A stretch of DNA of 64,000 bases from Treponema sp. UBA6367 (GCA_002437725.1 DJRF01000024.1:53205-117204), one strand, 5' to 3'; numbered from the stretch's first letter, positions 7,309 through 59,031 are shown. Translations and numbers: made by a program. Notes: generated by a model from the sequence alone, not told the origin.

Positions 7309-7324
7309 ATCGTAGGATTCTAAA

Positions 7325-16560: not shown

Positions 16561-16591
16561 TTTAAAACTTGTTTATCTATTTGGAGGACTT

Positions 16592-18158: not shown

Positions 18159-18722
18159 TTGCTAAATATGGACGGTCAGACAGAACAAATCAAGCCTCTT
18201 AATGCAGCAGATTCTGTTGACTTTAAAACGATTTATAGCGCAACAATGCAGATGCTGTTCAAAATCTCTTACAGAATTGTAAACGACGAAGAAGCAGCGG
18301 AAGATTTAGCACATGATTCGCTTATTAAAGCCAACGAAAAGCAACTGTCTTTTCCTACTATGAATGACGCAAAATTCTGGTTGATTCGAGTTGTAAAGAA
18401 CGCATCGCTGAATTACGTTAAACGAAAAAATCGCGAAAAAAAAGCTTTTCAAAAAGCTCTTTACGAAGATTACCGCACTGCTCAGTCAGGAGAAACAGAA
18501 TACCTTGCAGCGGAGTCTATAAAAAATGCTCAAAAAGCATTAGATATGTTGCCGGCCAAACTAAAAGAAGCCCTTGTACTTGCAGAATATGCAGACTTAA
18601 ATTACAAGGAAATAGGAAGAGTGCTTGGAATATCCGAAGGAAACGTAAAAGTCCGTATTTTTCGAGCACGCAAGCAATTGGAACAAATTTTAGGAGTTGA
18701 AAATGTATTCTTGCCCAACTGA
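18159..18722 (+). CDS. ECF-type RNA polymerase sigma-70 family factor
   Basis: Region 2 (EEAAEDLAHDSLIKA) and region 4 HTH (YKEIGRVLGISEGNVKVRIFRARKQL). The start is TTG 18159 (8 nt after AAGGAG) or ATG 18168. Confidence 0.8.
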   Translation: MLNMDGQTEQIKPLNAADSVDFKTIYSATMQMLFKISYRIVNDEEAAEDLAHDSLIKANEKQLSFPTMNDAKFWLIRVVKNASLNYVKRKNREKKAFQKALYEDYRTAQSGETEYLAAESIKNAQKALDMLPAKLKEALVLAEYADLNYKEIGRVLGISEGNVKVRIFRARKQLEQILGVENVFLPN

Positions 18723-19365
18723 TGACATTCATTCAATCTACTTAGATAAGGAATTACCTTCAACATATCTAGCTGAATACGAACAGCATTTAAAAAACTG
18801 TCCAAAGTGCCAAAAGAAGTTAGATTCCTTAAAAAGAATTCATGAAATCTTCCAAAAAGATAAAATTCAAATAGCTCCAGATTCTATTTACCTGGAGCAA
18901 AGCTTTGAAAGAATTCAGACTAAACTAAAATATTCTAAAAATGTAAAGCAATCTGAAAGTTTCATGCTTTCAGCATTTTCAAATCCTCAAAATCAAAAAG
19001 TTTATGGATTTGCAAAATACGCACTAGTCGCAGCGGCAGCCGTGGCATTAGTTATTGTTCCTGTAAAACTTTTAAATATCCAATCAAATCCTACGCAGGC
19101 AGTAAATTTTTCTGAAGTTGCAATGACGCAGGATTTACCCGTAGTTAATGAAAACGTTGTTATAAATGGAAATATATCGCAACCATTTGCAGTTTCTATG
19201 AATAATGGTAAAATGACTATTCCAGAGCGAGATGTTTTCCGTCCAAATTTTAGAAATATAAATAAAATTTCTGTAGAAATGACCGTTCCTGGATTAGACA
19301 AACAAAATTACAGCGAAGTTCAAATCAGACTTCCTGTAAATTCAAATACTGGGATTTTACCGTGA
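18703..19365 (+). CDS. anti-sigma factor (zf-HC2 type), single-pass membrane
   Basis: The H-x3-C-x2-C motif (HLKNCPKC) lies about 30 aa from the N-terminus. There is a central TM helix (YALVAAAAVALVIVPV). The start overlaps the end of the sigma gene, with TAGGAG upstream. Confidence 0.7.
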   Translation: MYSCPTDDIHSIYLDKELPSTYLAEYEQHLKNCPKCQKKLDSLKRIHEIFQKDKIQIAPDSIYLEQSFERIQTKLKYSKNVKQSESFMLSAFSNPQNQKVYGFAKYALVAAAAVALVIVPVKLLNIQSNPTQAVNFSEVAMTQDLPVVNENVVINGNISQPFAVSMNNGKMTIPERDVFRPNFRNINKISVEMTVPGLDKQNYSEVQIRLPVNSNTGILP

Positions 19366-21072: not shown

Positions 21073-21768
21073 ATGACAAAAGTTCTTTCCGTAGGTGGCT
21101 CAATCGTAGTTCCAGAAAAACCTGACACAGAATTTTTAGGAAAATTTATTAATCTTGTAAAAGAATGGCTTGAAGAGGACGAAAGTCGAAAACTAATTCT
21201 TGTTGTTGGCGGCGGAGCGCCTGCTCGCATTTATCAAAACGCATATTCTGAAGTTTCTAAATGCGTAAACACAAACTCCGCAAGCGATGCTGCCGACTGG
21301 ATTGGAATTATGGCAACAAGGCTTAATGCCCAGCTCGTAAAAGCTTGCTTCGGAGAGCTTTGCAAAAATGACGTAGTCTATAATCCTACAGAACCAATAG
21401 ATTTCAAAGGAAGAGTTCTTCTTGCCGCTGGTTGGCATCCAGGATTTTCTACAGACAATGACGCCGTTCTTCTTGCAGAACAGCACGGCGCAAAAACAGT
21501 TGTAAATCTTTCAAATATCGAAAAAGTTTACACTGATGATCCAAGAAAGAATCCTGATGCAAAACCTATTGACAGCATAAGCTGGGCTGATTTCCGCAAA
21601 ATGGTTGGCGACAGCTGGGTTCCTGGCAAAAACTGTCCATTCGATCCGATTGCTTCAAAAAAGGCAGACGAATGTGGAATGACCGTTATTTGCGCAGGCG
21701 GAAAAAACATAGAAAACATCCGTGCAATCCTGAACGACCAGGAATTTTTAGGAACAAAAATAGGCTAA
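21073..21768 (+). CDS. pyrH: UMP kinase, archaeal-like amino-acid-kinase family
   Basis: VLSVGGSIV, LVVGGGAPARIY and GWHPGFSTDNDAVLLAE...VYTDDPRKNPDAK motifs. 231 aa. Confidence 0.65.
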   Translation: MTKVLSVGGSIVVPEKPDTEFLGKFINLVKEWLEEDESRKLILVVGGGAPARIYQNAYSEVSKCVNTNSASDAADWIGIMATRLNAQLVKACFGELCKNDVVYNPTEPIDFKGRVLLAAGWHPGFSTDNDAVLLAEQHGAKTVVNLSNIEKVYTDDPRKNPDAKPIDSISWADFRKMVGDSWVPGKNCPFDPIASKKADECGMTVICAGGKNIENIRAILNDQEFLGTKIG

Positions 21769-21779
21769 AATTAGTTATC

Positions 21780-21984
21780 TAGCCCGAACTTCGAGTTTTT
21801 AGAAAGAGAATAAAAGCGTAAACGAATTTATAATTTGTGAAGATTTTGTGCGATAAGACCAGTTAAGGTTGCATAGCAATTCAAATCAACCCAAACGAAG
21901 TGCGAGCACAACCATCGGCAACAAATTGTAAATTCGTTGAGAGCGTTTTTTTCACAATTTATAAAAAACTCGAAGTTCGGGCTA
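21780..21984 (-). repeat. intergenic nested-palindrome element, long form, copy D (complete, near-perfect termini)
   Basis: TAGCCCGAACTTCGAGTTTTTAGAAA ... TATAAAAAACTCGAAGTTCGGGCTA. It lies between convergent genes. Its right terminus supplies the TAG stop of 21982..22596. Confidence 0.9.
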
Positions 21985-22596
21985 TCTATTTTTATATTTA
22001 GACGCAACCGACTGTTCCATGAACAAAAGGATTGCGTCTATTTTTTTGCCATACAGTTTATCGGCAGCCCAAACTCCTGCAAGAGCATAAATATCTTTTG
22101 CAAACTTAGTTTTATGAACCCAATTATAGCGCGGATCAACTAGCGGAAGATTTAATTTTTCGTTTTCGTTTGTAGCGTATGCCTGAAGATGTTGAATATG
22201 AGCCCTGACTCCAATCTGTTCTGTCTCAAACCATTCACCTGGATGCTGGGCATCAATTGCCCCTAGCCCACAATAATTGTGCATTTCTGGAACGACTAGA
22301 TTTCCAAATTTTAAGTAACCAGTTTCAAGACACATCTGTGCAAAAGCCACATCAGAATTTATCCCCTCTACACCAGCTTCTTCAATATAGAATTTTGCAA
22401 GCCTTTGAACCAAAGATTTATCTGCATTTGGATTTTTTTGCATAAAACAATAAACAAGCTCATCTGAAGAAAAAACAGGTTTTCCTTTTAGCTCTCTTGA
22501 TGCCTCAATTCTTTTTTGCGGTACAGAAACACAAGAAAAAAATAAAAAACTAAAAACAAAAGCAAAAACTATAAAATGTAAAGTCGTTTTTTTCAT
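21982..22596 (-). CDS. glucosaminidase-domain (mannosyl-glycoprotein endo-beta-N-acetylglucosaminidase-like) lipoprotein
   Basis: Signal plus lipobox (FLFFSC). AFAQMCLETGYLKFG...NYCGLGA is typical of the glucosaminidase domain. Confidence 0.7.
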   Translation of the reverse strand: MKKTTLHFIVFAFVFSFLFFSCVSVPQKRIEASRELKGKPVFSSDELVYCFMQKNPNADKSLVQRLAKFYIEEAGVEGINSDVAFAQMCLETGYLKFGNLVVPEMHNYCGLGAIDAQHPGEWFETEQIGVRAHIQHLQAYATNENEKLNLPLVDPRYNWVHKTKFAKDIYALAGVWAADKLYGKKIDAILLFMEQSVASKYKNR

Positions 22597-27525: not shown

Positions 27526-27573
27526 ATAGTTGAAACAATGCAGATTGTGCTATAGACTTAAATTCTTGCTAAC

Positions 27574-27774
27574 AGGTCAAAAGTTGAGTTTTTAGAAAAA
27601 TAACAAAAGCGTAAGCGAATTTACAATTTGTGAAGATTTTGTGCGATAAGAACAACTAAGGTTGCATAGCAACCCAAACCAATTCAAACGAAGTTTGAGC
27701 ACAACCGTCTGAACAAAGTGTAAATCCGCTGAAAGCGTTTTTTTTGCAATTATAAAAAACTCGACTTTTAACCC
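27574..27774 (-). repeat. intergenic nested-palindrome element, long form, copy E (AGGTCAAAAGTTGAG terminal variant)
   Basis: AGGTCAAAAGTTGAGTTTTTAGAAAAA ... TATAAAAAACTCGACTTTTAACC. It ends about 22 nt before the CotH-lipoprotein start. ORF 27592..27891 (-) is a read-through of it. Confidence 0.85.
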
Positions 27775-27796
27775 AACAAATACTTTCGGAGGTTTT

Positions 27797-33660: not shown

Positions 33661-33764
33661 ATTTCTATTATACAGAAATTACTCAGATTTGTGAATTTTT
33701 TTCTTTCAGGATTTTTTATTTTACGCAATCAGACTAAAAATCCGGTTTTATAAAAAAACGTAAA

Positions 33765-33851
33765 TAGCCCGAACTTCGAGTTTTTAGAAAAAGAATAATT
33801 TCGTTGAGAGCGTTTTTTTCACAATTTATAAAAAACTCGAAGTTCGGGCTA
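33765..33851 (-). repeat. intergenic palindromic element, short form (S2)
   Basis: TAGCCCGAACTTCGAGTTTTTAGAAAAAGAATAATTTCGTTGAGAGCGTTTTTTTCACAATTTATAAAAAACTCGAAGTTCGGGCTA. This equals copy D minus its internal block of about 118 bp. Confidence 0.9.
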
Positions 33852-33992
33852 AATATTTTTCTTCAACATAAAAACTATCAAACAGTTGTTTTCTTTTTAA
33901 TTGAACTTAAACAAAAAAGATAGTATATTTAAAGGCAAATGATTTTTTGGGGAAACCCAGATTTCACAATGAAGTTTTTATAGGAGTTATAA

Positions 33993-36022: not shown

Positions 36023-38308
36023 TTACACTTTCATTACTTCTTCTAAAAGCCGCCAGTCGCTGCCGTCGATGTCATCGCTGAAGTGTTCTGTGCAAATGCA
36101 CAGACGACCTTTTTTATCAGTGCGCACAAATCCGCCTTTCAGCTTGTACTCGCTAAGATAATTTTTTAATACTTCAAATTTTCGTGGCGCAAAATCATCG
36201 ATGTTTTGGCTCTGCCCGCTCGCGGAAAAACCGCCTTTCGTTTCGATTATCCAAGTTCCGTCCGCAGTACCTAAAACATAGTCCGGATAGAAGAGCCGCA
36301 TTTTTCCGCTTCCGTCTTTGTACGCAACCGAGTAAAAGTCCGTTCCCTTGTCGCCGTTTTTATAAAACCAATGCACAAAGGGTGAATTTTCACAGAATTC
36401 TTCAAACTTTCGCTCCGGCATTGAACGGACTTCCGCAGATTCCCGGTAATCGGCATAGACATTTTTGCTATAGACTTTCTGAGCCTTGTCGCTTCCATCA
36501 AAGGTAAAAAGACAGACTTGTGGAATGTGAAAATCCTTTTCTATGATTTCTGACGGTTCAAAGGTAAGAGTCGCCTGCGTTGAATTTCCTAGTTCTGTTA
36601 TTGCCTCGTGAAAATCAGTTTTCAAAAGAGCGGCATTATTGATTACAAACGCATACAGTTCCCGCGTTTCAAGATTTAAAAGCGAATATTTTCTGCTGGC
36701 AACTTTTGGATTTTTGTAGAAAACCCGGCGGAAAACCGCGTTCATCTTTTCGTATTTCAAGCTTACTTCCGTACTCAAAATTCCTATTTCATGATGAAAC
36801 TGCCTTCCGTGCGTATGCGTGTTTAGCGGAATTGCAAAGTTGGAATCATACAGCTTATTCATTTTGCCTGCGTCCAGAGTTTCAGTCTGTCCTATTTTTG
36901 CTGAAACCACAATTTTATCGCTGAAAATGTAGCCGTTCTTTGCCAAAAGTTTTTGATTGCCTTCAAAATTTCTTCCGGCAGTCAGGGCGTATTTTTTTTC
37001 AAAATGATTCACGACATTTTTCATCGTTTCCTCGGCATCATTTTCGTCGATTACATCCGGGCGTTGCTGAGTTTTTAGAGTAACGTCCTTGTATTCATCT
37101 TTTAGCTGAATGTAAGCCGCATCCCATGCGCCGTGTTCAAGAAAAGCCTTCGCTCCTTCAGTAAATTTGTTGTCCCAGGTATACAGATAGCAGCTGTCCA
37201 GAGCGTTGTCGCCGTAATGATGCGCGTTAGGCATTCGGCGGATTCGCCCGAAAGTCTGAATTTCAAACTTTTCGCCTTCGTGGTCGCGGAGTTTTACAAG
37301 AATATGCGCACGAGGGCAATCCCAGCCGGTCGCAACCGCCATCTTAAAAATCAGAGCTTCCTGCCGCACATCATTTTTTTCGATTTCTTCAAGATTTTCG
37401 TGCCGGCTGAACTTGCTTTTTCCGTTTTCGCTCAGCCAGATTGCAAGCTTTCCGTTTTCAAAGGAAACACCGTGATTTTCAAACCAGACTTGAACTTCAT
37501 CCAGCAATGAATCGGACGAGTTCGGCATTTGAACCAGAATCAGCGGATTTACATTTTCGCCATTCTCAAGGAATTTGCCGCGCAAGAGCCGCTGTTTTTC
37601 CAAAGCCTTGTTCAAAAGGTAAGAAACCTGACTTTCTCCTTCAAGTTCCGTGATTTCGCTGCTCAAAACCGTAATCGGAAAACCTTCGTTTATAATCAGC
37701 ATTTTCTTGACAAGCCCTTCTTCGATTACATCTTTTTCAGGAACTTCGATAAATTCAACCTTTGGGTCGCTCTGATTGTAACCGTTCGGTGTGGCGCTTG
37801 CGCGGATAATCGGAAGCCTTGCGCCAGCGTCCTTAAAATAGTTGATTATCACCGCGGATTTTTTACTGTCGTTCATGTGGCTTTCGTCGATAATCAGAAT
37901 GAAATTCAAGCCGGAATCTCGGGCACAACGGATGTACTCGATAAAGTTTGTGTGTTCTCCGTCGCGAACGGCGATATTGTCGTTTTTATTCAGAAGCTCC
38001 CAGTTGATAAAGCAGCAGTCGTTTTCAGAAAAACCGCTGGTCATCACATCGGAAAGCAGTTTTGTCTGCGCTCCATGAATGTATGCGTCCATTTTCTTTT
38101 TGCTCTGCTCTTCAAGGTTGCCTTTTCCTGGCGTGAACCAGATGAAAACCGTATTTGCGTGGCACTTCAAGTATTCGTCCATAAAGTGCGTGAGCATGAT
38201 TGTCTTGCCGCTGCCCGTGCAGGACTTTAGGATGATTTCTTCCTTGCCTTTTTCGATTGCCGCTTGGATGCGAGAAATCGCCGTCCGCTGAAAATTCATT
38301 AAATCCAT
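36023..38308 (-). CDS. res: Type III-like restriction enzyme Res subunit (SF2 helicase + C-terminal PD-(D/E)xK-like nuclease)
   Basis: Walker A CTGSGKT, DExH box IIDESH, and the C-terminal YPDYVLGTADGTWIIETKGG. It lies 13 nt downstream of the methyltransferase gene. By eye it is GC-richer than its neighbours. Confidence 0.7.
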   Translation of the reverse strand: MDLMNFQRTAISRIQAAIEKGKEEIILKSCTGSGKTIMLTHFMDEYLKCHANTVFIWFTPGKGNLEEQSKKKMDAYIHGAQTKLLSDVMTSGFSENDCCFINWELLNKNDNIAVRDGEHTNFIEYIRCARDSGLNFILIIDESHMNDSKKSAVIINYFKDAGARLPIIRASATPNGYNQSDPKVEFIEVPEKDVIEEGLVKKMLIINEGFPITVLSSEITELEGESQVSYLLNKALEKQRLLRGKFLENGENVNPLILVQMPNSSDSLLDEVQVWFENHGVSFENGKLAIWLSENGKSKFSRHENLEEIEKNDVRQEALIFKMAVATGWDCPRAHILVKLRDHEGEKFEIQTFGRIRRMPNAHHYGDNALDSCYLYTWDNKFTEGAKAFLEHGAWDAAYIQLKDEYKDVTLKTQQRPDVIDENDAEETMKNVVNHFEKKYALTAGRNFEGNQKLLAKNGYIFSDKIVVSAKIGQTETLDAGKMNKLYDSNFAIPLNTHTHGRQFHHEIGILSTEVSLKYEKMNAVFRRVFYKNPKVASRKYSLLNLETRELYAFVINNAALLKTDFHEAITELGNSTQATLTFEPSEIIEKDFHIPQVCLFTFDGSDKAQKVYSKNVYADYRESAEVRSMPERKFEEFCENSPFVHWFYKNGDKGTDFYSVAYKDGSGKMRLFYPDYVLGTADGTWIIETKGGFSASGQSQNIDDFAPRKFEVLKNYLSEYKLKGGFVRTDKKGRLCICTEHFSDDIDGSDWRLLEEVMKV

Positions 38309-38321
38309 AAGTCCTCCGCCG

Positions 38322-40097
38322 CTACAGCGCCAGGTCGCGGTAGTAATAGTCTGGAATCACATTGACGCTGATGTTGCGAGCTTTTAGGATTTGCTCCTGT
38401 CTTGAAGAAAGGAGGACGTCGTGCCCGACATAGAGAACTTTTGCGGAGGTTGAGCCTGCCGAAACCACAGCAGCTATAAATTCTTCCAGCTCATCGTCAT
38501 CAAGCACGATTGCCACTGTTTTGTCCTTGTCGAAATTGACGGCGTTTTCCAGTTCCACCAGTTCCCGAACATGCAGAAGAAGCTCGTCGGCATATTCGTA
38601 GTACATTTTTTCGCTGATTGGGATAAAGCCGGTTTTGAAGTATTTTAGAGAGCCGGGGAGAGCGTCGGAATAATTTGAACCGTCTTTGCGTTTTCCAGTG
38701 ATTACGGTTTTTAGCCGCTGATATGTGATGTCGCGGCAGATGCTGTTTTCGTTATTGGTGCAGAGGATGAATTTCCGGTGGCCGCCATCTTCTGCATTTA
38801 GTGCAAGTGTTGCATGACCTGCAGAGCCAGAACCTGCGAAGAAATCTAAAACAGTTATGTCTTTCTTTTTATGATAGTTGATAAATTGCTTAAGCATTTT
38901 TACAGGTTTTTTACCACTGCCGAAAGGAACTCCCCCTTCGTGGCGGATATTTCCAAAATCTGGCGAAAAATCGTATGCCGTAAGAATCGGGAGTTCTCTA
39001 GTAGGAGCATTTCCTGTTTCAAAGATTTTTCGTTTTTCCAAAGGAATTCCACTAAACATTTTTCCTTTAGTTGCATTTGCTTTAGCCGGTCCCGTATAAT
39101 ATCTGTATCCTAAGCCGTCATCACCACGACCTAAAACTTTGTATAAACATCCAAGTCCATCTTCTTCAATACGAGGTTCAACAATACTTTGAAAAACTTT
39201 TCCATAACTCATTGTTGTATATATACTTCCTGTAATCCAAGTCTCTTTTAAACCATCAATATTTCCTTGAACTTTTTCGATTTTCCAATCACCTTTTTTA
39301 AATACAACAACTTCTTGATTTTTTACAAATATATGCTCTCCGTCTTTTAATTCTGTAATCTTAAAACAAAAACCATCCAATCCATAATCAATTTTTTCCC
39401 GATTTGGATTAAAAAATAGATTATTTTTTGCATAGAATAAAACATATTCCATAAGAGGTTTAAAGGGTTTTTCTTCATTTATACTTTTTTCAGCATATCG
39501 GACTTGAATATGAAATGTTGCCAAATAGTTACCTACACCAAATATTTCATCACACAAAAACTTCATCGCAGAATATTCATTGTCATCAATAGAAATTGCA
39601 ATAAATCCATTTTGGGCAAGTAAATCTCTAGCAATTCTTAATCGTTTTGAAATAAAACTGCACCATTTAGAATGTCTAAAAGAATCATCTGCATCCACAT
39701 AATCATCATCGTAAATAAAATCTTTATTTCCCGTATTATACGGTGGATCAATGTAAATCACGTCAATCTTTCCGCGGTGAGTTTTTTCCAGGAGTTTTAG
39801 GCTGGCAAGATTGTCGCCTTCAAGCAGAAAGTTCAGTTCGCCGCCGTTGTCTACGAACAAATCTTTTTCTTCGGTAAAAATAGGCGCGTACTGTTCTAAA
39901 GTCTCATCGATTTTTTCGCGATGCTCTTCAAATACAAGTCCGTACTTTTTGCCGTTCACTTCCCTGCTAAGTTCTCCAAGATAGCCAAGCAGCTGCGAGG
40001 CATTTTTGTCGTTTGCGTTCTGTTCTATAAATGCTTTTATTTCTGCAATTTTTGAAAGCAAATCCTGTCGTTTTTCGCCTGAAATATTGGTAGACAT
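38322..40097 (-). CDS. mod: DNA methyltransferase, beta-class N6A/N4C (Type III Mod-like)
   Basis: Motif IV DVIYIDPPYNTG precedes motif I VLDFFAGSGSAGHA (beta permutation), with a long variable region between them. 591 aa. Confidence 0.8.
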   Translation of the reverse strand: MSTNISGEKRQDLLSKIAEIKAFIEQNANDKNASQLLGYLGELSREVNGKKYGLVFEEHREKIDETLEQYAPIFTEEKDLFVDNGGELNFLLEGDNLASLKLLEKTHRGKIDVIYIDPPYNTGNKDFIYDDDYVDADDSFRHSKWCSFISKRLRIARDLLAQNGFIAISIDDNEYSAMKFLCDEIFGVGNYLATFHIQVRYAEKSINEEKPFKPLMEYVLFYAKNNLFFNPNREKIDYGLDGFCFKITELKDGEHIFVKNQEVVVFKKGDWKIEKVQGNIDGLKETWITGSIYTTMSYGKVFQSIVEPRIEEDGLGCLYKVLGRGDDGLGYRYYTGPAKANATKGKMFSGIPLEKRKIFETGNAPTRELPILTAYDFSPDFGNIRHEGGVPFGSGKKPVKMLKQFINYHKKKDITVLDFFAGSGSAGHATLALNAEDGGHRKFILCTNNENSICRDITYQRLKTVITGKRKDGSNYSDALPGSLKYFKTGFIPISEKMYYEYADELLLHVRELVELENAVNFDKDKTVAIVLDDDELEEFIAAVVSAGSTSAKVLYVGHDVLLSSRQEQILKARNISVNVIPDYYYRDLAL

Positions 40098-40213: not shown

Positions 40214-40510
40214 ATGGAAGATTTTTACGATTCTTTTCGTCTTAATATAAAATTTTATCGAGAGAGAATGGGATTCAGCCAATCAGAACTTGCAATTCAG
40301 GCTAACAGTTCAAATGGCATGATTGGAAATATTGAATCAGGAAAGGCGAAACCATCATTTGATAATATATTAAAAATCGCCGCCGCCTTAAAAATTCACC
40401 CTGCAGACCTTTTTCTGCGCAATGCTTCATCGACTGTGTCAAACACTAAAAATCTTATGAAAACAAAACTGATTCCTCAAATAGAAGAATTTATTGAAAA
40501 GGAACTATAA
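40214..40510 (+). CDS. XRE-family HTH transcriptional regulator
   Basis: MGFSQSELAIQANSSNGMIGNIESGKAKPSFDNILKIAAAL is a classic XRE/Cro-C1 HTH. 98 aa. It is divergent from mod. Confidence 0.8.
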   Translation: MEDFYDSFRLNIKFYRERMGFSQSELAIQANSSNGMIGNIESGKAKPSFDNILKIAAALKIHPADLFLRNASSTVSNTKNLMKTKLIPQIEEFIEKEL

Positions 40511-40538: not shown

Positions 40539-40627
40539 TAGCCCCAACTTCAAGTTTTTTATAACTGTAAAAAATACTTTCAACGAGTTTACAATTTGTT
40601 CAGACGGTTGTACTCGAACTTCGTTTT
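40539..40627 (+). repeat. truncated left half of the intergenic nested-palindrome element
   Basis: TAGCCCCAACTTCAAGTTTTTTATAA...TTTGTTCAGACGGTTGTACTCGAACTTCGTTTT is collinear with the left half of copy C and then stops abruptly at the start of the cassette arm. Confidence 0.75.
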
Positions 40628-40653
40628 ATCACTTTTCCTAGTTTTAATCATAG

Positions 40654-40748
40654 GTAACCAAGTTACTATAAAGGGTAACTCGGTTACTAACAAAGGTAAC
40701 TTAGTTACTAAAAAAATAACTTGGTTATTTTTTTGCGAACTTGGTTAT
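40654..40748. promoter_or_regulatory. array of five phased 13-bp palindromes (left)
   Basis: GTAACCAAGTTAC 40654, GTAACTCGGTTAC 40675, GTAACTTAGTTAC 40696, ATAACTTGGTTAT 40716, CGAACTTGGTTAT 40736. Start-to-start spacing is 21, 21, 20, 20. Confidence 0.85.
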
Positions 40749-40892
40749 TTCGTATTAAAACGCCTTTACAGAAGAAAAAATCTTGTTTACAGTTTTATTT
40801 AGGGTTTGTCAAAATCCTAAAAACGGCTGAGTCAATGTCTTGAGCGTAAGCGTACCTTGACCAAACGTATTATTAAAAAAGTTTTTGAGTGC

Positions 40893-40933
40893 GTAAGATA
40901 AAATCTGCTTATAAGTCGGCAATTTTATCTTAC
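40893..40933. promoter_or_regulatory. AAGATAAAA hairpin/palindrome, copy 1
   Basis: GTAAGATAAAAT - 17 nt - ATTTTATCTTAC (12-bp perfect stem). Its 3' end overlaps CTTACA, with TATCAT 17 nt downstream. Confidence 0.7.
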
Positions 40934-40992
40934 AACTCTACAAAAAACTTCTATCATTTCAACATTTCAAAAAAAACAAGATGAGGTTACTT

Positions 40993-41604
40993 ATGAAAAA
41001 AACATTTTTGCTATTAAGTCTTATTTTTGTTGAACTTTTTCTCACAGGATGTATCGCTGACAACACTATAGTAGAAGAACCAGGATTTTTATATAAAGTA
41101 GAAGTAAACATACACAATGAAAGTTCTTCAGAAAAAACTATTAGTACAGAAACTTATTCTCTTTGCGAAAATGACTGTCATAAATCAGCTGATGATGACA
41201 GTGAAAAAACAATCATTGCATCAAAAATGTTTGAGCGATATGAACATATTATTTCTTTCGATCTATACCCCCCTCCTCACCTTTCTCACATTTTTAAGAT
41301 TGATGGCAAAAACTTTGCAGGATTTAATCCAGAAAAATATACTTCTTTTCGAGACATCCATACAGGTAAGAAGATAGAAAAGATTACAGCTGTAAAAACA
41401 GATATTGGTTCTGTCGACTGGTCTCAAGATGAAAAACTTATAATAAATTATGAAGGAAAATCTTTTTACGAAAATACAGATTCAATTATAAAACTAATTT
41501 ATACAATAATTATAAAAGATGATGCAGATATTGCAGATTCAGAAAAATCTGAATATACAGAAGGAGTAAAAATTTCAATAACGCATAAGGTGGAAAAAGA
41601 TTAA
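40993..41604 (+). CDS. hypothetical lipoprotein
   Basis: ATG 40993 (MKKTFLLLSLIFVELFLTGC lipobox) is preceded by GAGGT. I recognise no family. Confidence 0.6.
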   Translation: MKKTFLLLSLIFVELFLTGCIADNTIVEEPGFLYKVEVNIHNESSSEKTISTETYSLCENDCHKSADDDSEKTIIASKMFERYEHIISFDLYPPPHLSHIFKIDGKNFAGFNPEKYTSFRDIHTGKKIEKITAVKTDIGSVDWSQDEKLIINYEGKSFYENTDSIIKLIYTIIIKDDADIADSEKSEYTEGVKISITHKVEKD

Positions 41605-41703
41605 ATCTTAACTATTTTTAAGGTAAATAAAATATTTTTTAATTTGTTACAATTTTAGTTTCTTAGTATTTTCAGATTAAAAAAAGTTTTGTATACTAAC
41701 TTT

Positions 41704-42465
41704 ATGAATGTAAAAAAAAGTTTTTTATACGAACGATTGATGATTCTTTTCGCAGCAATCGTTCAGTCTGTTGGTTTTGTAATTAGTATCACAGTAGAAA
41801 GCTATTCAAATTCCTTTTTGCCATATTGTAGAATTGTTGTACCCATTGCAAACATTTCATGTGCGGCTATTTGTTTTTTCTTAGTGGCTTTTCCTAAATT
41901 TAGATTTATGCAATCTGTTGTTTCATTTATTCAAGGGATAGTAATGACTTTGAATAATCTGATGTTCTTAGGGATTTTCCTTTACTTCTTTGGAATCGCG
42001 CTTCTTTTTTGCTATGGCTATTTAAATACTAAAAGGCAAGTAAAATACGTGCTTTCACTGCTTCCATTAATGCTGTCTTTTTTTATAATTCTACCTAAAA
42101 GCCTTCCCAAATTTTTTATGGCTTTTTCATATTCCTTGTTTCTAACATTCGCTTTTCTACACTTATATTTCACCGTAAAAAATTCATTACTTGACTTATT
42201 TCCTTTCTTATCTGATAAAATTTCTACAGCAAAGCTTCCTAAACATGGAGAAACCTTAAATTTAAAAAATTATGAACTTTCTGAAAGACAAATCGAGATT
42301 ACAAAAGAATTCTTAAAAGGTACTACAAATTATAAAAAACTTGCAGAATGTTTTGTAACAAGTGAATCAACTGTAAAAAAAGAAATGAGCAATGTTTGTA
42401 AAAAGTTCGGAGTAGACAATTCTACTGTTCTATTACTTTTACTAAAGCAGTATGAAATAATTTAA
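41704..42465 (+). CDS. polytopic membrane protein with C-terminal LuxR/GerE-type HTH
   Basis: About five hydrophobic helices, followed by LSERQIEITKEFLKGTTNYKKLAECFVTSESTVKKEMSNVCKKFGV. The start is ATG 41704 or TTG 41689. Confidence 0.6.
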   Translation: MNVKKSFLYERLMILFAAIVQSVGFVISITVESYSNSFLPYCRIVVPIANISCAAICFFLVAFPKFRFMQSVVSFIQGIVMTLNNLMFLGIFLYFFGIALLFCYGYLNTKRQVKYVLSLLPLMLSFFIILPKSLPKFFMAFSYSLFLTFAFLHLYFTVKNSLLDLFPFLSDKISTAKLPKHGETLNLKNYELSERQIEITKEFLKGTTNYKKLAECFVTSESTVKKEMSNVCKKFGVDNSTVLLLLLKQYEII

Positions 42466-42471
42466 TGACAT

Positions 42472-43719
42472 TTAAGAATTATGCTTACAAAATGCAATTA
42501 AAAATTCATCCCACAGTGAATTTTCATAAAAGCTCAAAATCTCATAATCTGAATTATTCTTAAAATAATAAGACTTTTCTTCTTTTGTATGAGGAAAATT
42601 AATTCCACAACCTCCAAACAATTTTTTATACAAACTTGAACTTCTGCAATTTGGAACAAGACTTTTAAAAGCATTTTTTAATTCAGTATTATCAAAGAAA
42701 AAACTTGCAGAATTAACAAACTCAAATAAATCAACAAACTCCGAATAAGATTCATCTGTGCAAGCAAGGTTCGCTCTTATATCTTTTATAATTTCAAACT
42801 TATCTTCCACATACAAAATAAGATTTTTACAAAAGGAATTAAACAGCGGCATAAAACTGTTAAAAGATTTTGTATTTACAAGTGAATAAGAAAAATCACT
42901 AGAAAAATTATTTTGATATTCATAAAAAGTTTCAACTAAATATTCTGCAAATTCTTTTGAATTGAAATCCTGAACACAACTTAAATAAGAAGCGATATTT
43001 TTATAATCACTACCAATTCCTAAAATTTGAGTTTCTGCACCAACAACATAATCAGTAAGATTTTTTAATTCATAACTTACTTCAATCATTTGCATATCGC
43101 AACAGTCAAATTGAATTATATCAATATATTTTTTATAATTCTCTTCGTATTCTTTTATATTTCTTGCCAACTTATAAATTGGCATAGCTTTATTTGCCCC
43201 ATACCCTGTTGAATAATCTTCAATAACACTGCGTAAATTGTTAGAAATAATTCCATCAGGATAAACTCCTCTTCCGTGACTCCAAATATTTAAAACCGTA
43301 TGCCTTGCCGGAAAATATTTATTAACTTTTGAAAGAAAATTGTAAAGAGTTTCAGAATTTGTCATATCAAGTTCATCATATTCAAAAATTATGTCGTCAT
43401 TCATTTTGTTTGGCGCTTTTGTGATATAAAACAAATCTGTACCTTTTCGATTATCTTCCGATTTATCATATCCTGGACTTCTGTCAAAAAGAACAATTAT
43501 ATTTGAACTGCTGCTAGACCCGATTTCTTGCAAAGATTTTATATTTTTGATTCCAAACCTTTCAAGATTATTGTCTGCGGCCATGTATATCAAGTAATTT
43601 ACTTCTTTTTCTTCATGAATTTTTAGAACTTTATTATTAGAGTTAATGTCATGATTGCAGGAAATGAATTCAAAAATAATAAAAAAAGGAACAATCTTAA
43701 ATACATTCAAATATTTCAT
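42472..43719 (-). CDS. clostripain-family (C11) cysteine peptidase lipoprotein
   Basis: YLIYMAADNNLE, WSHGRG (catalytic His context) and QFDCCDMQM (catalytic Cys context). Signal with FISC lipobox. Confidence 0.7.
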   Translation of the reverse strand: MKYLNVFKIVPFFIIFEFISCNHDINSNNKVLKIHEEKEVNYLIYMAADNNLERFGIKNIKSLQEIGSSSSSNIIVLFDRSPGYDKSEDNRKGTDLFYITKAPNKMNDDIIFEYDELDMTNSETLYNFLSKVNKYFPARHTVLNIWSHGRGVYPDGIISNNLRSVIEDYSTGYGANKAMPIYKLARNIKEYEENYKKYIDIIQFDCCDMQMIEVSYELKNLTDYVVGAETQILGIGSDYKNIASYLSCVQDFNSKEFAEYLVETFYEYQNNFSSDFSYSLVNTKSFNSFMPLFNSFCKNLILYVEDKFEIIKDIRANLACTDESYSEFVDLFEFVNSASFFFDNTELKNAFKSLVPNCRSSSLYKKLFGGCGINFPHTKEEKSYYFKNNSDYEILSFYENSLWDEFLIAFCKHNS

Positions 43720-44875
43720 ACATTAAACTGTCTATATTTGGAGTTTTATCTTTTTTCATATTTGAAGAAGTTAATATTACAATGCAAACATCTTTATTTT
43801 TGTTGTAAAACATTAAATTTTCATCACCAATGCTCCGTCCATAGGAACCTAAAAATTCAAAGTCTTTATAAAAAAGATTTCGTATTCCATAGCCATAAGC
43901 AATCTGCCCAGTATTTTTATCAGTAAATAACGAAACAGAGTTTTTTATTTCTTCGCGAAGTTCTTTTTCAATACTTCCATTAAAACTTAGCAAATTGTAT
44001 CCCCATTTTGATATTTCTTCTGCAGTTGAAACAATTCCACCTGCCGTCCAACCACACTTTCCTAACAGTTCTAGAACGTTGGGAATTATACCTGCAATAT
44101 CAATTGGCGTTTTTCCATCTCCAGAAAGTTCCATAAATGTATTTGGATAACAATGCGGATGAGCAACTTTGTTTAAGTTCACACTATCTTGTGGATAAAG
44201 CAAGACCGAAATATTCATAGGCGACAAGAGGTTTTGATTTACATATACGTTTGCTGCTTCATTTGTAATTTTTTCGATTATCATTCCTAGCAAAATGTAA
44301 TTCGTTGAAGAATATAAAAAATTACCACTAGACTCTGAAGGTTTTTCAATAAAAGATAAAATACTTTGAGCATTCCAATCATTTGTTTTTGAAAATGGAT
44401 TGTTATAAATCAATGCAGGATTTTCTGTATAATCGCTTATTCCAGAACGATGCGATAAAAGCTCTTTTATTGTTGCATTTGGGTTAATATAAATTGTGTT
44501 TATATTTTGAATGTATTTTGAAATGCTATCCTCTAAAGAAAGTTTGCCTTCATTTTTAAGCTTTAAAATAGCAGTTGCAACAAAACTTTTTGTTATGCTA
44601 TAAACAAAGTGAGGAGTCTGAATTTCATTTTTTGTTTTGCAAGATATAGAGGAATAACCATTTGCGTAATTATAATTTAACTTCTGTGATTTACTAAAAA
44701 CAGATACAGAAATCGCAGGTTTATAATCCCATTTTTCTATATAATTACAAATAACTTGTTCAATTTTTTCAAAAGTTGATTTATTACAGTTGTATTCAAC
44801 ATTTTTACATGCCGTAAAAAACACAAGGGCGCAAACTATTAAAAGATTTATAAAAAGCGACTTCATCTGATTCAT
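43697..44875 (-). CDS. beta-lactamase-fold serine hydrolase lipoprotein
   Basis: SxxK motif in VYSITKSF. The signal LIVCALVFFTAC is shared with the two upstream paralogues. The start is ATG 44875 or 44878. Confidence 0.7.
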   Translation of the reverse strand: MNQMKSLFINLLIVCALVFFTACKNVEYNCNKSTFEKIEQVICNYIEKWDYKPAISVSVFSKSQKLNYNYANGYSSISCKTKNEIQTPHFVYSITKSFVATAILKLKNEGKLSLEDSISKYIQNINTIYINPNATIKELLSHRSGISDYTENPALIYNNPFSKTNDWNAQSILSFIEKPSESSGNFLYSSTNYILLGMIIEKITNEAANVYVNQNLLSPMNISVLLYPQDSVNLNKVAHPHCYPNTFMELSGDGKTPIDIAGIIPNVLELLGKCGWTAGGIVSTAEEISKWGYNLLSFNGSIEKELREEIKNSVSLFTDKNTGQIAYGYGIRNLFYKDFEFLGSYGRSIGDENLMFYNKNKDVCIVILTSSNMKKDKTPNIDSLMYEIFECI

Positions 44876-44884
44876 CATTCTACC

Positions 44885-45832
44885 TCAATAATGGACTGCA
44901 ATATAATCACTACATTCAAGATTTTCATCACATCTTACAAATTTTACTTTATTGTTTTCTATTTTATAATAAGTTATAGAGGCAGTTTTTAAGCCATCTG
45001 CTACCTTTAGAGTAAAATAATCTGCAAACTCACTTTGCTTTGCATCAAGAAGATTAAAAGACACTGTTTTGTTTTCATCATCTATTTTTCCTCGTAAAGA
45101 AATTCCTTCATAGCAAGCGGTTTTCCTTGTTCCACAACCATAATAATATAAATCTAATTCAAGAGTTCCTTTATCATTATCTCGTCTTATATAATTTCTT
45201 ACATTTGGAATCCAAGAATATTTTGAGTAATCTATATAAACTTTTTTTGTAGACATATTATTTTTTAGATTTATATTAATAATTTCTTTATTTTTTATTT
45301 TTAGATTATAATTAAACTCATTTATAGTTGCCGTTTTGTCTGAAAGTCTAGTTAAAACTACAACTGCTTTATTTTCATCAGTTTCACCATCATACAAAGA
45401 TTTTTTTACATAGCAGTCGTATTCAAATTTGTTTTCTATATCTTTTTGTGGAATATCTATTCCGTTTGCACAACTCTTTGCTTCTTCAATCCAATGATAT
45501 AAAATAACGAGTCCGCTTTCATTTGAGTCATTAAAATCTAGTATAGTGCCTTGTCCAGATAATCTTAATCTAAATTTACCTTCATAATTACTGCTTATAA
45601 CTGATTCCGGCACATAGCTATGTAATTTTTTTCCTTGCTCACTTTGCCAATCTAACCACTCTGAAATACCGATGCACTGCGTATATTGAAAAGGATCTAA
45701 CCATTCAGGATAGTTTGAAATTTCTTTTCCGCGCAAATAGAATTCGTTGTCCGGGTTAAATGGGCATGCCGTAAAAAACACAAGGGCGCAAACTGTTAAA
45801 AGATTTATAAAAAGCGACTTTGTTTGATACAT
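44885..45832 (-). CDS. hypothetical lipoprotein, paralogue 2
   Basis: ATG 45832 (MYQTKSLFINLLTVCALVFFTAC) with GAGGT upstream. The N- and C-terminal thirds are near-identical to 45840..46790, and the centre has diverged. Confidence 0.65.
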   Translation of the reverse strand: MYQTKSLFINLLTVCALVFFTACPFNPDNEFYLRGKEISNYPEWLDPFQYTQCIGISEWLDWQSEQGKKLHSYVPESVISSNYEGKFRLRLSGQGTILDFNDSNESGLVILYHWIEEAKSCANGIDIPQKDIENKFEYDCYVKKSLYDGETDENKAVVVLTRLSDKTATINEFNYNLKIKNKEIININLKNNMSTKKVYIDYSKYSWIPNVRNYIRRDNDKGTLELDLYYYGCGTRKTACYEGISLRGKIDDENKTVSFNLLDAKQSEFADYFTLKVADGLKTASITYYKIENNKVKFVRCDENLECSDYIAVHY

Positions 45833-45839
45833 TTTTACC

Positions 45840-46790
45840 TCAATAATAATATGGACTATAATCCCTGCACTCAAGGTTTTCATTGCATCTTATAATTTTA
45901 GCTTTACTATTTTCTATTTTATAATAAGTTATAGAGGCAGTTTTTAAGTCATCTGCTACCTTTAGAGTAAAGTAATCTGCAAAGTCACTTTGTTTTGCGT
46001 CTAGAAGATTAAAAGAAATTGTTTTTTTTGCATCATCTATTTCGCCATGTAAAGAAATTCCTTCATAGCAATCTACACAGTTTTCCCATGTTTTTAAATC
46101 TTTTCCCATAAAAGCATGATACCCTTTTGCAAAATTTATAGCAGTTTTCGTCTCATTTACCTTTAGTCTATCAACTGAACATGGGAACCAAGAATGCTTT
46201 TTCATATCAATTGGCACTTCTTCTGAAATAAAGTTATTTTTCATATTGCAGTCTATAACAAGATTTCCAGCTATTTTTAGTTTGTAATTAAATCTGTTTT
46301 CTGTTGTTGAACTTTCTAATCTAGTAAGTACAACCTGCGCTTTATTTTCATCAGTTTCTTCATCATACAAAGATTTTTTTGCATAGCAGCCATATTCAAA
46401 TTTGTTTTCTATATCTTTTTGAGGAATATCTATTCCGTTTGCACAACTTTTGACTTCTGCAACCCAGTTATATAAAATAACGATTGCAGTTGATTTTGAA
46501 TCATTGAAAACGATGAATGTATCCTGATTTCCAAGATGCAATCTAAACTTTCCATTAAAATCTTTGCTTATTATATTTTCTGGAACATAATCATGCAAAC
46601 TTTTTCCTTGTTCACCTTGCCAATCAAGCCAATCAGATACTCCGACTCCGCCTCTTAACCATTCAGGATAGTTTGAAATTTCTTTTCCGCGCAAATAGAA
46701 TTCGTTGTCCGGGTTAAATGGGCATGCCGTAAAAAACACAAGGGCGCAAACTGTTAAAAGATTTATAAAAAGCAACTTTGTCTGTTTCAT
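45840..46790 (-). CDS. hypothetical lipoprotein, paralogue 1
   Basis: M(M)KQTKLLFINLLTVCALVFFTACPFNPDNEFYLRGKEISNYPEWL. The start is ATG 46790 (aligned with its paralogue) or 46793. Confidence 0.65.
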   Translation of the reverse strand: MKQTKLLFINLLTVCALVFFTACPFNPDNEFYLRGKEISNYPEWLRGGVGVSDWLDWQGEQGKSLHDYVPENIISKDFNGKFRLHLGNQDTFIVFNDSKSTAIVILYNWVAEVKSCANGIDIPQKDIENKFEYGCYAKKSLYDEETDENKAQVVLTRLESSTTENRFNYKLKIAGNLVIDCNMKNNFISEEVPIDMKKHSWFPCSVDRLKVNETKTAINFAKGYHAFMGKDLKTWENCVDCYEGISLHGEIDDAKKTISFNLLDAKQSDFADYFTLKVADDLKTASITYYKIENSKAKIIRCNENLECRDYSPYYY

Positions 46791-46808
46791 CATTCTACCT
46801 CAAGAATT

Positions 46809-48176
46809 CTATTTTCTAACAACATCCCAGTTTTTATAATGATAAACAGGTATGTAAGTTTCCCAGCTGCCATTTATTTTATCTGTGCAGTCCGCTAAGT
46901 CTAAAATTTTAAAAGATGGCCAGCAAAAAGGTCCCCAGCCGTTTCTTTTATAGCCGATTACAGGCCTATAGTGGCAACCTCCGTCACCAAAAACTCTTAA
47001 ACTAATGCCAGGCAAGTTGTCATTTATAGATTTTTTCGGATAAACAAACTGACTTGCTTTAAGAGTATATCTGCTATAATAATTAATTGCTCCAGCAAGA
47101 TTGTTTGGCATTGTTACAGAGCCACCGTCTTGACCACATAACCTTACAACACCAGCGATCAAACCTTTGCCAGTTCTCATTTTAGAATACAATTCTGCTT
47201 CTTTTTGAGACTCAGAAAGCTTGCTCCATAAGGATACATCAGAAATACTGTTTTTTTGAATATAGTCAAGCACAAAGCCTGCCGCAACAGGACCACAGGC
47301 TTTGTAATTGAAAATATGAATTTCATCTTCTCTCTTAAACAAAGTTTCATCTATAAAATTCCTATCAAGTTCAGTTCTTTCAGACTTGGCTTTGCCTCTT
47401 GCTGCAAAATCTGCAATATGACCTTTTTTCTCAACTGCCATTTGCCAAAAAACTTCCGCATTTTTTTCATAATCGCTTATTAATGCTCGCATTTTTTCAT
47501 CATCAGTATCGTCTAAAAAGTATTCTGAATATTTTTTAGAAACTTCTTCATAACCAGCAATCGAAGTTATATCACTTTCTTCTATATAATTTCCATCCGT
47601 TGTTAAATATGAACTAAATTCGTTTGCAGCACCTTTTGTTTCTTTTATAACTCCAAAAACAACATTCGGGTAGCCATCATCAACAATTCTTGGAAGCTCA
47701 TCTTCTAAAAGCTTGCCCTTATTGTATAAACTGGTAATTTCATCTGCATAGCCATCACATTTTGACTCATAGACTATCGGGCAACCATAAGATTTTTCCG
47801 CAGCTCCCACAATGACACCAACTATTTGCCATTCTGAAACAATTCTAAACTCATAAAACTTAATTTTTCCATTTGTTCCATAAATTGCCACAGGTATATT
47901 CCATAGCTCTGAATCTTGAGGATATTCATCAGCTTCTATAGAATCTTCCAGCCATAATTGCGCAAACTCTTTTGAAAGCTGCCAGTCTACAGAATTGTCA
48001 TCACCTCGCAAGGAATATTGATCTAATTCGCTTTCGCTTGTCAGTTTGGACATTTCCCATTCGATTTTGCCAGTATTTTTTGCTTTTGAAAAATTATCTT
48101 CTAATTCATTTGAATTACATGAACTAAAGATAAAAATTGGCAGGATAAAAAAGAAAAGAATAAAACTTTTTTTCAT
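46809..48176 (-). CDS. lipoprotein with C-terminal papain-fold (C39-like) cysteine peptidase features
   Basis: Signal plus lipobox (IFIFSSC). NYKACGPVAAGFVLDY (candidate nucleophile Cys) and GGCHYRPVIGY (candidate His). The family assignment is tentative. Confidence 0.45.
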   Translation of the reverse strand: MKKSFILFFFILPIFIFSSCNSNELEDNFSKAKNTGKIEWEMSKLTSESELDQYSLRGDDNSVDWQLSKEFAQLWLEDSIEADEYPQDSELWNIPVAIYGTNGKIKFYEFRIVSEWQIVGVIVGAAEKSYGCPIVYESKCDGYADEITSLYNKGKLLEDELPRIVDDGYPNVVFGVIKETKGAANEFSSYLTTDGNYIEESDITSIAGYEEVSKKYSEYFLDDTDDEKMRALISDYEKNAEVFWQMAVEKKGHIADFAARGKAKSERTELDRNFIDETLFKREDEIHIFNYKACGPVAAGFVLDYIQKNSISDVSLWSKLSESQKEAELYSKMRTGKGLIAGVVRLCGQDGGSVTMPNNLAGAINYYSRYTLKASQFVYPKKSINDNLPGISLRVFGDGGCHYRPVIGYKRNGWGPFCWPSFKILDLADCTDKINGSWETYIPVYHYKNWDVVRK

Positions 48177-48207
48177 ATCTATGAAAATCTCCCGTATAAA
48201 AGTGTTA

Positions 48208-48247
48208 TAAGATAAAAACCACCTAAATATAAGCAGTTTTTATCTTA
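48208..48247. promoter_or_regulatory. AAGATAAAA hairpin/palindrome, copy 2
   Basis: TAAGATAAAAAC - 16 nt - GTTTTTATCTTA (12-bp perfect stem). It lies 32 nt upstream of the start at 48176 on the minus strand. Confidence 0.7.
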
Positions 48248-48319
48248 CACGCGCAAAACTTTTTTAATAATAAAACTGTAAACAAGAATTTTTATTCTGT
48301 AAACCCATTTAGATACGAA

Positions 48320-48415
48320 ATAACCGAGTTCGCAAAAAAATAACCGAGTTACCTTTTAAGGTAACCAAGTTACCCTGTTTAGTAACCGAGTTCGCAAAAA
48401 AAATAACTTGGTTAT
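48320..48415. promoter_or_regulatory. array of five phased 13-bp palindromes (right)
   Basis: ATAACCGAGTTCG 48320, ATAACCGAGTTAC 48340, GTAACCAAGTTAC 48361, GTAACCGAGTTCG 48382, ATAACTTGGTTAT 48403. Spacing is 20, 21, 21, 21. Confidence 0.85.
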
Positions 48416-48445
48416 TAACAAGGAAATTTGCAACGCAAACTTTTA

Positions 48446-48484
48446 AAGATAAAAACTGACGTCATATCCGGCAGTTTTTATCTT
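48446..48484. promoter_or_regulatory. AAGATAAAA hairpin/palindrome, copy 3
   Basis: AAGATAAAAACTG - 13 nt - CAGTTTTTATCTT (13-bp perfect stem). Its 3' end overlaps CTTACC, with TATAAT (48504..48509) 16 nt downstream. It is upstream of the Na/Pi transporter gene. Confidence 0.7.
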
Positions 48485-48528
48485 ACCTCCTTGTTTTTAT
48501 CAATATAATCCACTAATATGTTAAAATC

Positions 48529-58828: not shown

Positions 58829-58866
58829 TATTTTAAAAAAGCAAATTTTGCAATCAAAAATCTATA

Positions 58867-58954
58867 TAGCCCGAACTTCGAGTTTTTAGAAAGAGAATAA
58901 ATTCGTTGAGAGCGTTTTTTTTCACAATTTATAAAAAACTCGAAGTTCGGGCTA
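58867..58954 (-). repeat. intergenic palindromic element, short form (S3)
   Basis: Near-identical to 33765..33851. It is itself embedded between AATCAAAAATCTATA (58850..58864) and TATAGATTTTTGATT (about 58990..59004). Confidence 0.9.
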
Positions 58955-59031
58955 TATACGCTGCAATTAAAAAAGAATTTCTGCTGTATAGATTTTTGAT
59001 TTTATCACACTTTAATAATTAGCCTAGTTTT

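Follow-up and report, generated by a model that had tools for sequence, protein, structure and literature searches.

Mirrored arms of a lipoprotein and peptidase cassette in Treponema as a probable duplicated operator-promoter-leader module with a candidate membrane-bound LuxR-type regulator

Are two inverted arms that bracket a block of genes the ends of something that moves or flips, or a control region that the enclosed operons share? The question is raised by a locus of Treponema sp. UBA6367, within a stretch of 64,000 nucleotides (nt) (GCA_002437725.1 DJRF01000024.1:53205-117204; hereafter the window, in whose coordinates positions are given). An initial annotation, made by eye, described there a cassette of 7.8 kb and seven genes (40651-48418) between mirrored arms, proposed either a cis-regulatory module duplicated for two convergent operons or the Tn7/Mu-style ends of a mobile or invertible cassette, and held that one sequence could not separate the two. 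Comparative data from same-species strains, a related metagenome-assembled genome (MAG) and distant relatives do separate them: the arms are likely to be a duplicated operator-promoter-leader module for the two convergent operons, which most likely stand under a membrane-bound LuxR-type protein encoded within the cassette. As judged from these comparisons, a duplicated module would be an ordinary kind of genetic feature, and binding by the regulator is predicted; the novelty lies in the predicted pairing of an uncharacterized regulator family with its operator and targets, not in a new kind of genetic element.

Anatomy of the two arms

Formal alignment bears out the mirrored, collinear arrangement in two significant blocks. 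With blastn, 40655-40799 matches the reverse complement of 48269-48414 at 82.9% over 146 nt (E 1.8e-35 in a window-sized search), and 40868-40939 pairs in the same way with 48201-48272 at 80.8% over 73 nt (E 5.9e-10); the only better matches within the window are those of an unrelated intergenic repeat family among its own copies. All of the ordered elements listed by the initial annotation are found, and their order is kept in both arms: five palindromes, TTTCGTAT, CTTGTTTACAGTTTTATT, ATTAAAAAAGTTTT and a hairpin with a stem of at least 12 bp.

The palindromes form a putative operator array in each arm. On the left (40653-40749) there are five 15-bp sites of the form (G)GTAAC-YNR-GTTAC(Y), with cores starting at 40655, 40676, 40697, 40717 and 40737; on the right (48319-48416) the five palindromic sites have core starts at 48321, 48341, 48362, 48383 and 48404. 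Spacing is 21, 21, 20 and 20 bp in the left array and 20-21 bp in both, i.e., two helical turns, so that all sites lie on the same face of the helix. Taking transcription to start about 7 nt past the -10 hexamer (starts are predicted), site centers fall near -58, -78, -98, -119 and -140 in both arms. Within the 64 kb such phased palindromes are confined to the arms: TAACNNNGTTA occurs seven times, each time inside an arm, against 0.96 expected, and none of 100 shuffled sequences reaches seven copies. In the right array the outer pair of sites is similar to the inner pair, suggesting that a unit of two sites was duplicated.

Between the proximal site and the -35 hexamer lies the TTTCGTAT block (40748-40755 on the plus strand, 48313-48320 on the minus strand). 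It is followed by a predicted sigma-70-type promoter that reads inward, on the left at 40765-40793 (+; TTTACA at 40765-40770, 17 nt, TACAGT at 40788-40793; predicted start near 40800) and on the right at 48275-48303 (−; TTTACA-17 nt-TACAGT, leftward; predicted start near 48268). In keeping with a sigma-70-type promoter, whose two hexamers are expected 16-18 nt apart at a conserved position, TTTACA and TAnnAT stand at 16-18 nt in seven lineages.

The left leader, of about 190 nt, consists of a 72-nt segment, an A/T block and a hairpin, and is followed by a Shine-Dalgarno sequence and by the start codon (ATG) at 40993; the right leader mirrors it, with a hairpin and, at 48176, its ATG, but is without the 72-nt segment. 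This segment (40800-40871, +), which has inverted-repeat-like ends (TAGGGTTTGTCAA...TTGACCAAACGT) and flanking TATT repeats, corresponds to what had been described as a 68-bp insert of the left arm. The extra stretch is real, but it is not an insertion. It is present in the left arm of the window and in both arms of the related MAG (L123 and L100; labels of this kind denote the database loci and contigs compared with the window) and absent from the right arm of the window, the right arm of L004 and the left arm of L129, with identical boundaries across arms and genomes wherever it is present or absent. Because the orthologous right arm L100 has the segment and L129, with identical boundaries, is missing it from its left arm, the distribution points to an ancestral part of the leader that was lost more than once by recurrent precise deletion, including from the right arm of the window, likely through slippage between the flanking TATT repeats. 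As a candidate copy of the intergenic repeat family of the window the segment was rejected, its best local alignment elsewhere in the window scoring 35 against at most 32 for shuffled sequence.

The A/T blocks are conserved in both leaders (ATTATTAAAAAAGTTTTT, 40869-40886, +; ATTATTAAAAAAGTTTT, 48255-48271, −), and the left one could pair with sequence 3' of the hairpin. The left hairpin (GTAAGATAAAAT...ATTTTATCTTAC, 40893-40933, +) folds, as a 56-nt segment (40885-40940), at -20.4 kcal/mol (z = -7.0, z-scores giving folding energy relative to shuffled sequence), and the right one (48206-48249, −) at -21.5 kcal/mol over 48203-48255 (z = -6.5). A third copy (48445-48485, z = -4.6) stands just outside the right arm, before a Na/Pi-cotransporter gene, and the hairpin is confined to the cassette locus. 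The right hairpin reaches 20 pairs once the G-U pairs of the sense strand are counted, and as such pairs exist on that strand only, they give a small hint that the structure acts in RNA. Altogether, the leader hairpin probably acts on RNA, at the level of stability or translation, and independently of the array. The sole match in an Rfam search of the leader was the TD-2 RNA (RF03162), at 33.0 bits and below its gathering threshold of 48.7; this sub-threshold match spans 48396-48486 (+) and falls mostly on the third hairpin.

Enclosed genes and the candidate regulator

The cassette consists of two convergent operons, the left one with a lipoprotein gene and the candidate regulator gene and the right one with five lipoprotein genes. 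The left operon opens with a predicted 203-aa lipoprotein gene (40993-41604, +), found only in the lineage of the window and without a family match, and continues with the gene for the 258-aa candidate regulator (41689-42465, +). On the minus strand, the right operon runs from a predicted 455-aa lipoprotein gene (46809-48176) through two tandem paralogous lipoprotein genes without family matches (44885-46793, made up of 44885-45883 and 45840-46793) and the gene for a lipoprotein with the beta-lactamase/penicillin-binding protein (PBP) fold of serine hydrolases (43697-44878) to a last gene, which encodes a clostripain-family (C11) cysteine peptidase lipoprotein (42472-43719). Six of the seven enclosed genes encode lipoproteins, as had been noted, their translations showing plausible signal peptides that end in Cys, and the reported AT-richness is confirmed by a G+C content of 0.30 in the cassette against 0.37 in the rest of the window. 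Of the three hydrolases proposed earlier, two stand, by their C11 and beta-lactamase/PBP families; for the 455-aa protein, the putative third, no sequence match was found in Pfam, NCBIfam or the PDB.

In three neighboring lipoprotein genes, the 5' ends have in common a 135-nt segment that encodes the signal peptide (44741-44875, 45698-45832 and 46656-46790), with 97% identity between the paralogues and 62% to the beta-lactamase-fold gene, which suggests gene conversion or a common signal-peptide module.

The 258-aa protein has six predicted transmembrane (TM) helices (16-28 residues each, mean hydropathy 1.3-2.5) followed by a C-terminal LuxR/GerE helix-turn-helix (HTH) domain. The Pfam GerE model (PF00196) matches residues 197-249 at 26.3 bits and thus passes the curated cut-off of 23.5; several homologues fall below this threshold. 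An AlphaFold model (24-sequence alignment, mean predicted local distance difference test score of 82) shows six hydrophobic helices and then a four-helix domain, whose helices (199-252) superpose on the DNA-binding domains of LiaR, VraR, NarL, GerE and ComA with target TM-scores of 0.7-0.86 and a root-mean-square deviation of about 1-1.4 Å (up to about 3 Å for GerE); the membrane part has no PDB match. A polytopic membrane domain and a DNA-binding domain are thus predicted in one polypeptide, as in membrane-bound one-component regulators. The membrane part alone, compared with 1.84 billion representative proteins, retrieved 41 clusters only, most of them with proteins of about 250-270 aa, and five of ten clusters examined have sub-threshold LuxR-type matches at the C-terminus. 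Homologues of the full protein make up a narrow family of 36 clusters with 46-99% identity. From its predicted architecture and family size, the protein belongs to a small, undescribed family of membrane-anchored one-component regulators.

The arms in strains, a related genome and distant relatives

Presence, absence or inversion of the cassette among strains bears directly on the question of mobility. The Na/Pi-cotransporter protein is found with identical sequence on 23 contigs, and in about 22 strain contigs (ten shown, and 12 more reported with the same neighbors) the cassette lies in the same place and the same orientation; neither an empty site nor an inverted cassette was seen among these or in the related MAG. 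In four of the ten shown contigs, the right arm and the transporter gene are separated by 3.2 kb of additional DNA, which contains a 701-aa gene and a 224-aa DUF4954 gene fragment (L004, L005, L007 and L010, at about 6700-9900), and in these strains the right arm remains joined to the 455-aa lipoprotein gene: it behaves as the promoter region of its operon and not as the boundary of a unit.

In the same strains, hairpin copies are found where the 701-aa gene is called to start and next to the gene for the transporter. The DUF4954 fragment is delimited by two hairpin copies, with the 701-aa gene placed between the array and the second of them; the window strain is without the 701-aa gene and retains one hairpin and a 16-codon remnant. 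Since a full-length DUF4954 gene adjoins the module in a distant locus (L142) and a decaying fragment is found in some strains of the species of the window, the pattern indicates, on gene order, a conserved neighborhood with local decay rather than transposition.

Both arms are also present (L123 left, L100 right) in a related Treponema MAG from a human gut sample, whose cassette proteins are 90-96% identical to those of the window (74-90% for the tandem paralogues). It was retrieved by a three-site pattern scan of one genome per species, in which the matches listed were mostly unrelated (Prevotella repeat elements, TetR arrays and a 21-bp coding repeat in L068). The right arm of this MAG includes the 72-nt segment, and promoter plus leader of its two arms are 86% identical over 185 nt, with five gapped columns only. 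Orthologous arms are 93-97% identical and paralogous arms 86-89%, so the duplication predates the split between the window genome and the related MAG. The number of sites per array varies, with four in L123 and L129 and five in the window. A third five-site array of this MAG (L102) lies unpaired on another contig, with a different promoter and upstream of an unrelated 431-aa lipoprotein gene, and as a single array it looks like part of a regulon rather than of a transposon.

The distant relatives, retrieved by a metagenome scan for homologues of the 258-aa protein that gave 22 loci, show the module in a simpler setting. In L137-L144 the regulator is 55-60% identical to that of the window, and the counterparts of the right-operon products (455-aa protein, paralogues, beta-lactamase-fold protein and C11) are 27-46% identical. 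The full five-gene operon stands divergent to the regulator gene and immediately upstream of it, with one intergenic region of about 245 bp between them, in L138, L142 and L144; L137 has a shorter version of the operon, and L139, L140 and L143 are cut by contig ends. The shared region has a single high-scoring site along with two or three degenerate repeats that resemble sites, then TTCGTAT, then TTTACA, and 16-18 nt past the latter a -10 hexamer that faces the operon (TATAAT in L138, TATGAT in L137, TATCAT in L144, TAACAT in L145 and TAATAT in L146). Seven lineages, with proteins no more than 54-66% identical, retain the proximal site, the TTTCGTAT block in the form TTCGTAT, and TTTACA. Across these loci the arm appears as a conserved regulatory region, single and shared in most of the regulator family, and there are two copies in the lineage of the window because the regulator gene, behind a new lipoprotein gene, sits across the operon with its own inverted copy.

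The association between array and regulator gene extends further. A weight matrix of the ten sites of the window, applied to 237 kb of homologue loci, placed all matches of at least 14 bits no more than 250 bp upstream of the regulator gene or, in L129, before its operon, the best match elsewhere reaching 13.3 bits. L062, with 23% identity and the same architecture, has three AATAACCAAGTTAC-type TAAC-N3-GTTA sites 116-167 bp upstream of the gene; L157, 30% identical in the TM part, has four TAAC-N4-GTTA sites upstream, and L162 about three sites by eye, one of them within one mismatch. As judged from this co-occurrence of gene and array across lineages, the 258-aa protein is the most likely binder of the arm operators. 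In relatives such as L145, no more than about 37 nt separate the array from the start codon of the regulator gene, so that the promoter of this gene must overlap the array, an arrangement that suggests autoregulation.

How do these comparisons bear on the proposal that the arms terminate an invertible cassette or a non-autonomous mobile element, with sites for a transposase or recombinase supplied in trans in the manner of Tn7 or Mu? It has in its favor two inverted arms of about 0.2-0.28 kb that bracket a low-G+C gene block, each with multiple sites of the protein-binding type, together with the strain polymorphism beside the right arm and, abutting the left one, the half copy of the intergenic repeat (40539-40626) correctly noted in the initial annotation; this half copy is absent from the related MAG (L123). 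However, the transposase-binding sites of Tn7- or Mu-type ends are directional, whereas those of the arms are palindromic. The outer flanks (left ...TTTTAATCATAG, right TTAACAAGGAAA...) have no common direct repeat, and hence no target-site duplication, and no recombinase or transposase domain is found in the 54 non-overlapping open reading frames (ORFs) of at least 130 aa in the window, in line with the earlier statement that the window holds no recombinase. To the single site and orientation among the close relatives sampled, the unpaired third array and the DUF4954 synteny retained across species, it can be added that distant relatives have the same genes around one shared intergenic module, with no bracket, and that no arms were seen bracketing other cargo. 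The module lies 7-9 G+C points under its flanks in every species examined, so the low G+C content is a property of the genes and not a sign of recent arrival. No record in the plasmid and phage collections matches an arm, and six viral contigs that match the array pattern are unrelated, with none of the six encoding a cassette homologue. As for inversion, an invertible switch should occur in both orientations with altered facing of a promoter; a single orientation was seen, and since both promoters lie inside the arms and read inward, inversion would leave expression unchanged.

Regulation, alternatives and known systems

The arrangement of array, promoter and leader within the arms, the single intergenic module of distant relatives and the candidate regulator inside the cassette all favor a duplicated regulatory module. 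In the proposed model, the membrane-anchored LuxR-type protein would bind the phased palindromes as dimers, cooperatively and on one DNA face upstream of the -35 hexamer in both arms, and would thereby control its own operon together with the lipoprotein/peptidase operon, in response to some envelope or extracellular cue sensed via its membrane domain. The mirrored arms would have arisen in the lineage of the window when the shared region was copied, inverted, before the new lipoprotein-regulator pair; for the change from divergent to convergent operons, the module would have to be copied and the regulator gene moved, at the least. Because the sites precede the -35 hexamer, activation is slightly favored, and cooperative repression would be almost as likely.

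Several points weigh against this model. Promoters so near to consensus are ill-suited to simple dependence on an activator and would fit a repressor that needs relief. The 6-3-6 palindrome is by itself not diagnostic of a LuxR-type domain, as Treponema TetR loci have a closely similar core, GATAAC-N3-GTTATC. Some members of the regulator family have no recognizable upstream array (L148, L158, L159/L160 and L161), and the L130-L135 lineage has sites that are degenerate or built around a 4-nt center; single downstream sites in this lineage were set aside as chance sites near an ammonium-transporter gene. In L004 the hairpin is found apart from the array as well, where the 701-aa gene is called to start. 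Finally, operator binding, transcription starts and the sign of regulation are all predictions.

A different binder for the same duplicated operator-promoter module, either the adjacent XRE-family protein (40214-40510) or an unlinked TetR-type factor, is the best-surviving alternative and, in our view, an unlikely one. In its favor, the window, L123 and L129 all have the XRE gene immediately upstream of the left arm, the TetR loci of Treponema have four-site arrays with the same TAAC-N3-GTTA core, and the L102 array has no adjoining regulator gene. Binding by the XRE protein is nevertheless disfavored by the absence of its gene from all more distant loci that retain the array, with no homologue in L130-L148, and arrays of the TetR type have another flanking base and an RNY instead of a YNR central triplet, with no TetR gene beside the arms. 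The only gene that stays beside the array across lineages, down to 23-30% identity, is that of the membrane LuxR-type protein.

A more far-reaching proposal, which we consider improbable, is that the operator-promoter-leader block is a portable unit, copied before new lipoprotein genes by recombination that its palindromic phased repeats promote, and that a regulator bound to both arms tethers the 7.8-kb locus to the membrane and couples transcription to export. The observations offered for portability are the inverted copy before the 203-aa gene, a solitary array in L102 and, preceding the 701-aa gene, a hairpin by itself.

Still harder to sustain is a neutral origin, in which the arms would result from local duplication or gene conversion and the palindromes would be a short tandem repeat without regulatory meaning. 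Arrays do gain and lose units, as seen from the four sites of L123 and L129, the five of the window and the likeness of the outer and inner pairs in its right arm. Yet half-sites and the 20-21 bp phasing are kept while inter-site spacers and central triplets vary, the proximal site, the TTCGTAT block and TTTACA persist across the seven divergent lineages, and the arms still resemble each other at the level of paralogous identity given above since before the split from the related MAG. The reading of the arms as mobile or invertible ends, finally, is the least credible of all in light of the strain, relative and flank comparisons.

The duplicated module under the membrane LuxR-type protein thus remains the preferred explanation. 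To our knowledge, almost no transcription factors of gut Treponema have been tied to their sites, and the analysis provides a testable regulon prediction for these bacteria that names a regulator, a 15-bp operator motif, promoters and target genes. It also carries a lesson of method, i.e., that the arrangement of genes in distant relatives can tell mirrored repeats from the ends of mobile elements.

The window has other features apart from the cassette. The intergenic repeat family, of about 150-240 nt, numbers at least eight members, which lie in either orientation and are 80-89% identical to one another (1701-1900, 4413-4605, 16331-16565, 21756-22000, 27569-27787, 33746-33873 and 58843-58963, besides the half copy at 40539-40626) and looks like a repetitive extragenic palindromic (REP)- or miniature inverted-repeat transposable element (MITE)-like element of this Treponema genome. 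A perfect 48-nt direct repeat (8845-8892 and 10782-10829, 1.9 kb apart) flanks an astacin-like peptidase gene and its neighbor. At 18159-19365 (+), a gene for an extracytoplasmic function (ECF)-type sigma factor is followed by an overlapping 222-aa ORF without a family match, which may encode an anti-sigma factor, and by a gene for a TIG/transglutaminase-like protein. The XRE-family HTH gene (40214-40510, +) is divergent from a type III restriction-modification (R-M) pair (36023-40097, −; Mod 38322-40097, Res 36023-38308), and its product may be the controller of this system rather than a part of the cassette. In one strain (L008, 1-1563) the type III methyltransferase gene is truncated and adjoins a gene with HTH_38 and rve integrase-core (transposase-type) domains.

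Among known systems, the ends of Tn7 and Mu resemble the locus in having several sites in each of two inverted arms around genes. The arms differ from them in having palindromic sites and in lacking a conserved terminal sequence, a target duplication, a transposase and any polymorphism of presence or orientation, and their counterpart in relatives is single and intergenic. The leader hairpin calls to mind the TD-1 and TD-2 RNA motifs of Treponema denticola, AT-rich long hairpins of unknown function that are repeated near gene starts (RF03162; PMC1950547); only the 3' hairpin of the TD-2 model is matched, by the third hairpin, and the cassette hairpin is restricted to its locus.

The Treponema TetR operator arrays, with four GATAAC-N3-GTTATC sites, have in common with the arms the TAAC-N3-GTTA core, a phasing of about 20-21 bp and a setting at divergent promoters, but differ from them in the central triplet and flanking base and never lie beside a membrane LuxR gene. 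Such four-site arrays are found in many Treponema and Spirochaetaceae MAGs (L014, L018, L022, L030, L035, L038, L051, L092, L098, L101, L112, L113 and L122); at the seven loci inspected, the array abuts, by eye, the start of an RND/MMPL-transporter-like gene, with a TetR-like gene opposite in five.

On the side of the protein, the DNA-binding domains of the NarL/GerE/LiaR/VraR type have the same fold as the C-terminal domain of the cassette protein. Domains of the NarL/GerE type usually bind short palindromes as dimers, and the half-sites of the 7-2-7 arrangement of NarL lie about 9 bp apart, like those of the 6-3-6 palindromes here. The cassette protein differs from NarL-type regulators in having no receiver domain, and is hence not part of a two-component system, and the array of five sites on one face is longer than usual.

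The closest known class consists of membrane-bound LuxR-type regulators from Eggerthellaceae, which have 10-12 TM helices, are encoded beside genes for catechol dehydroxylases and other reductases, and are reported to induce these in response to specific substrates (PMC11585353). The common design is a polytopic N-terminal membrane domain joined to a C-terminal LuxR-type domain, with the gene beside those it controls. The cassette protein, much smaller with its six TM helices and 258 aa, is likened to these regulators on its design; its predicted targets are spirochaete lipoproteins and peptidases instead of reductases, and an operator motif and array are predicted here as well.

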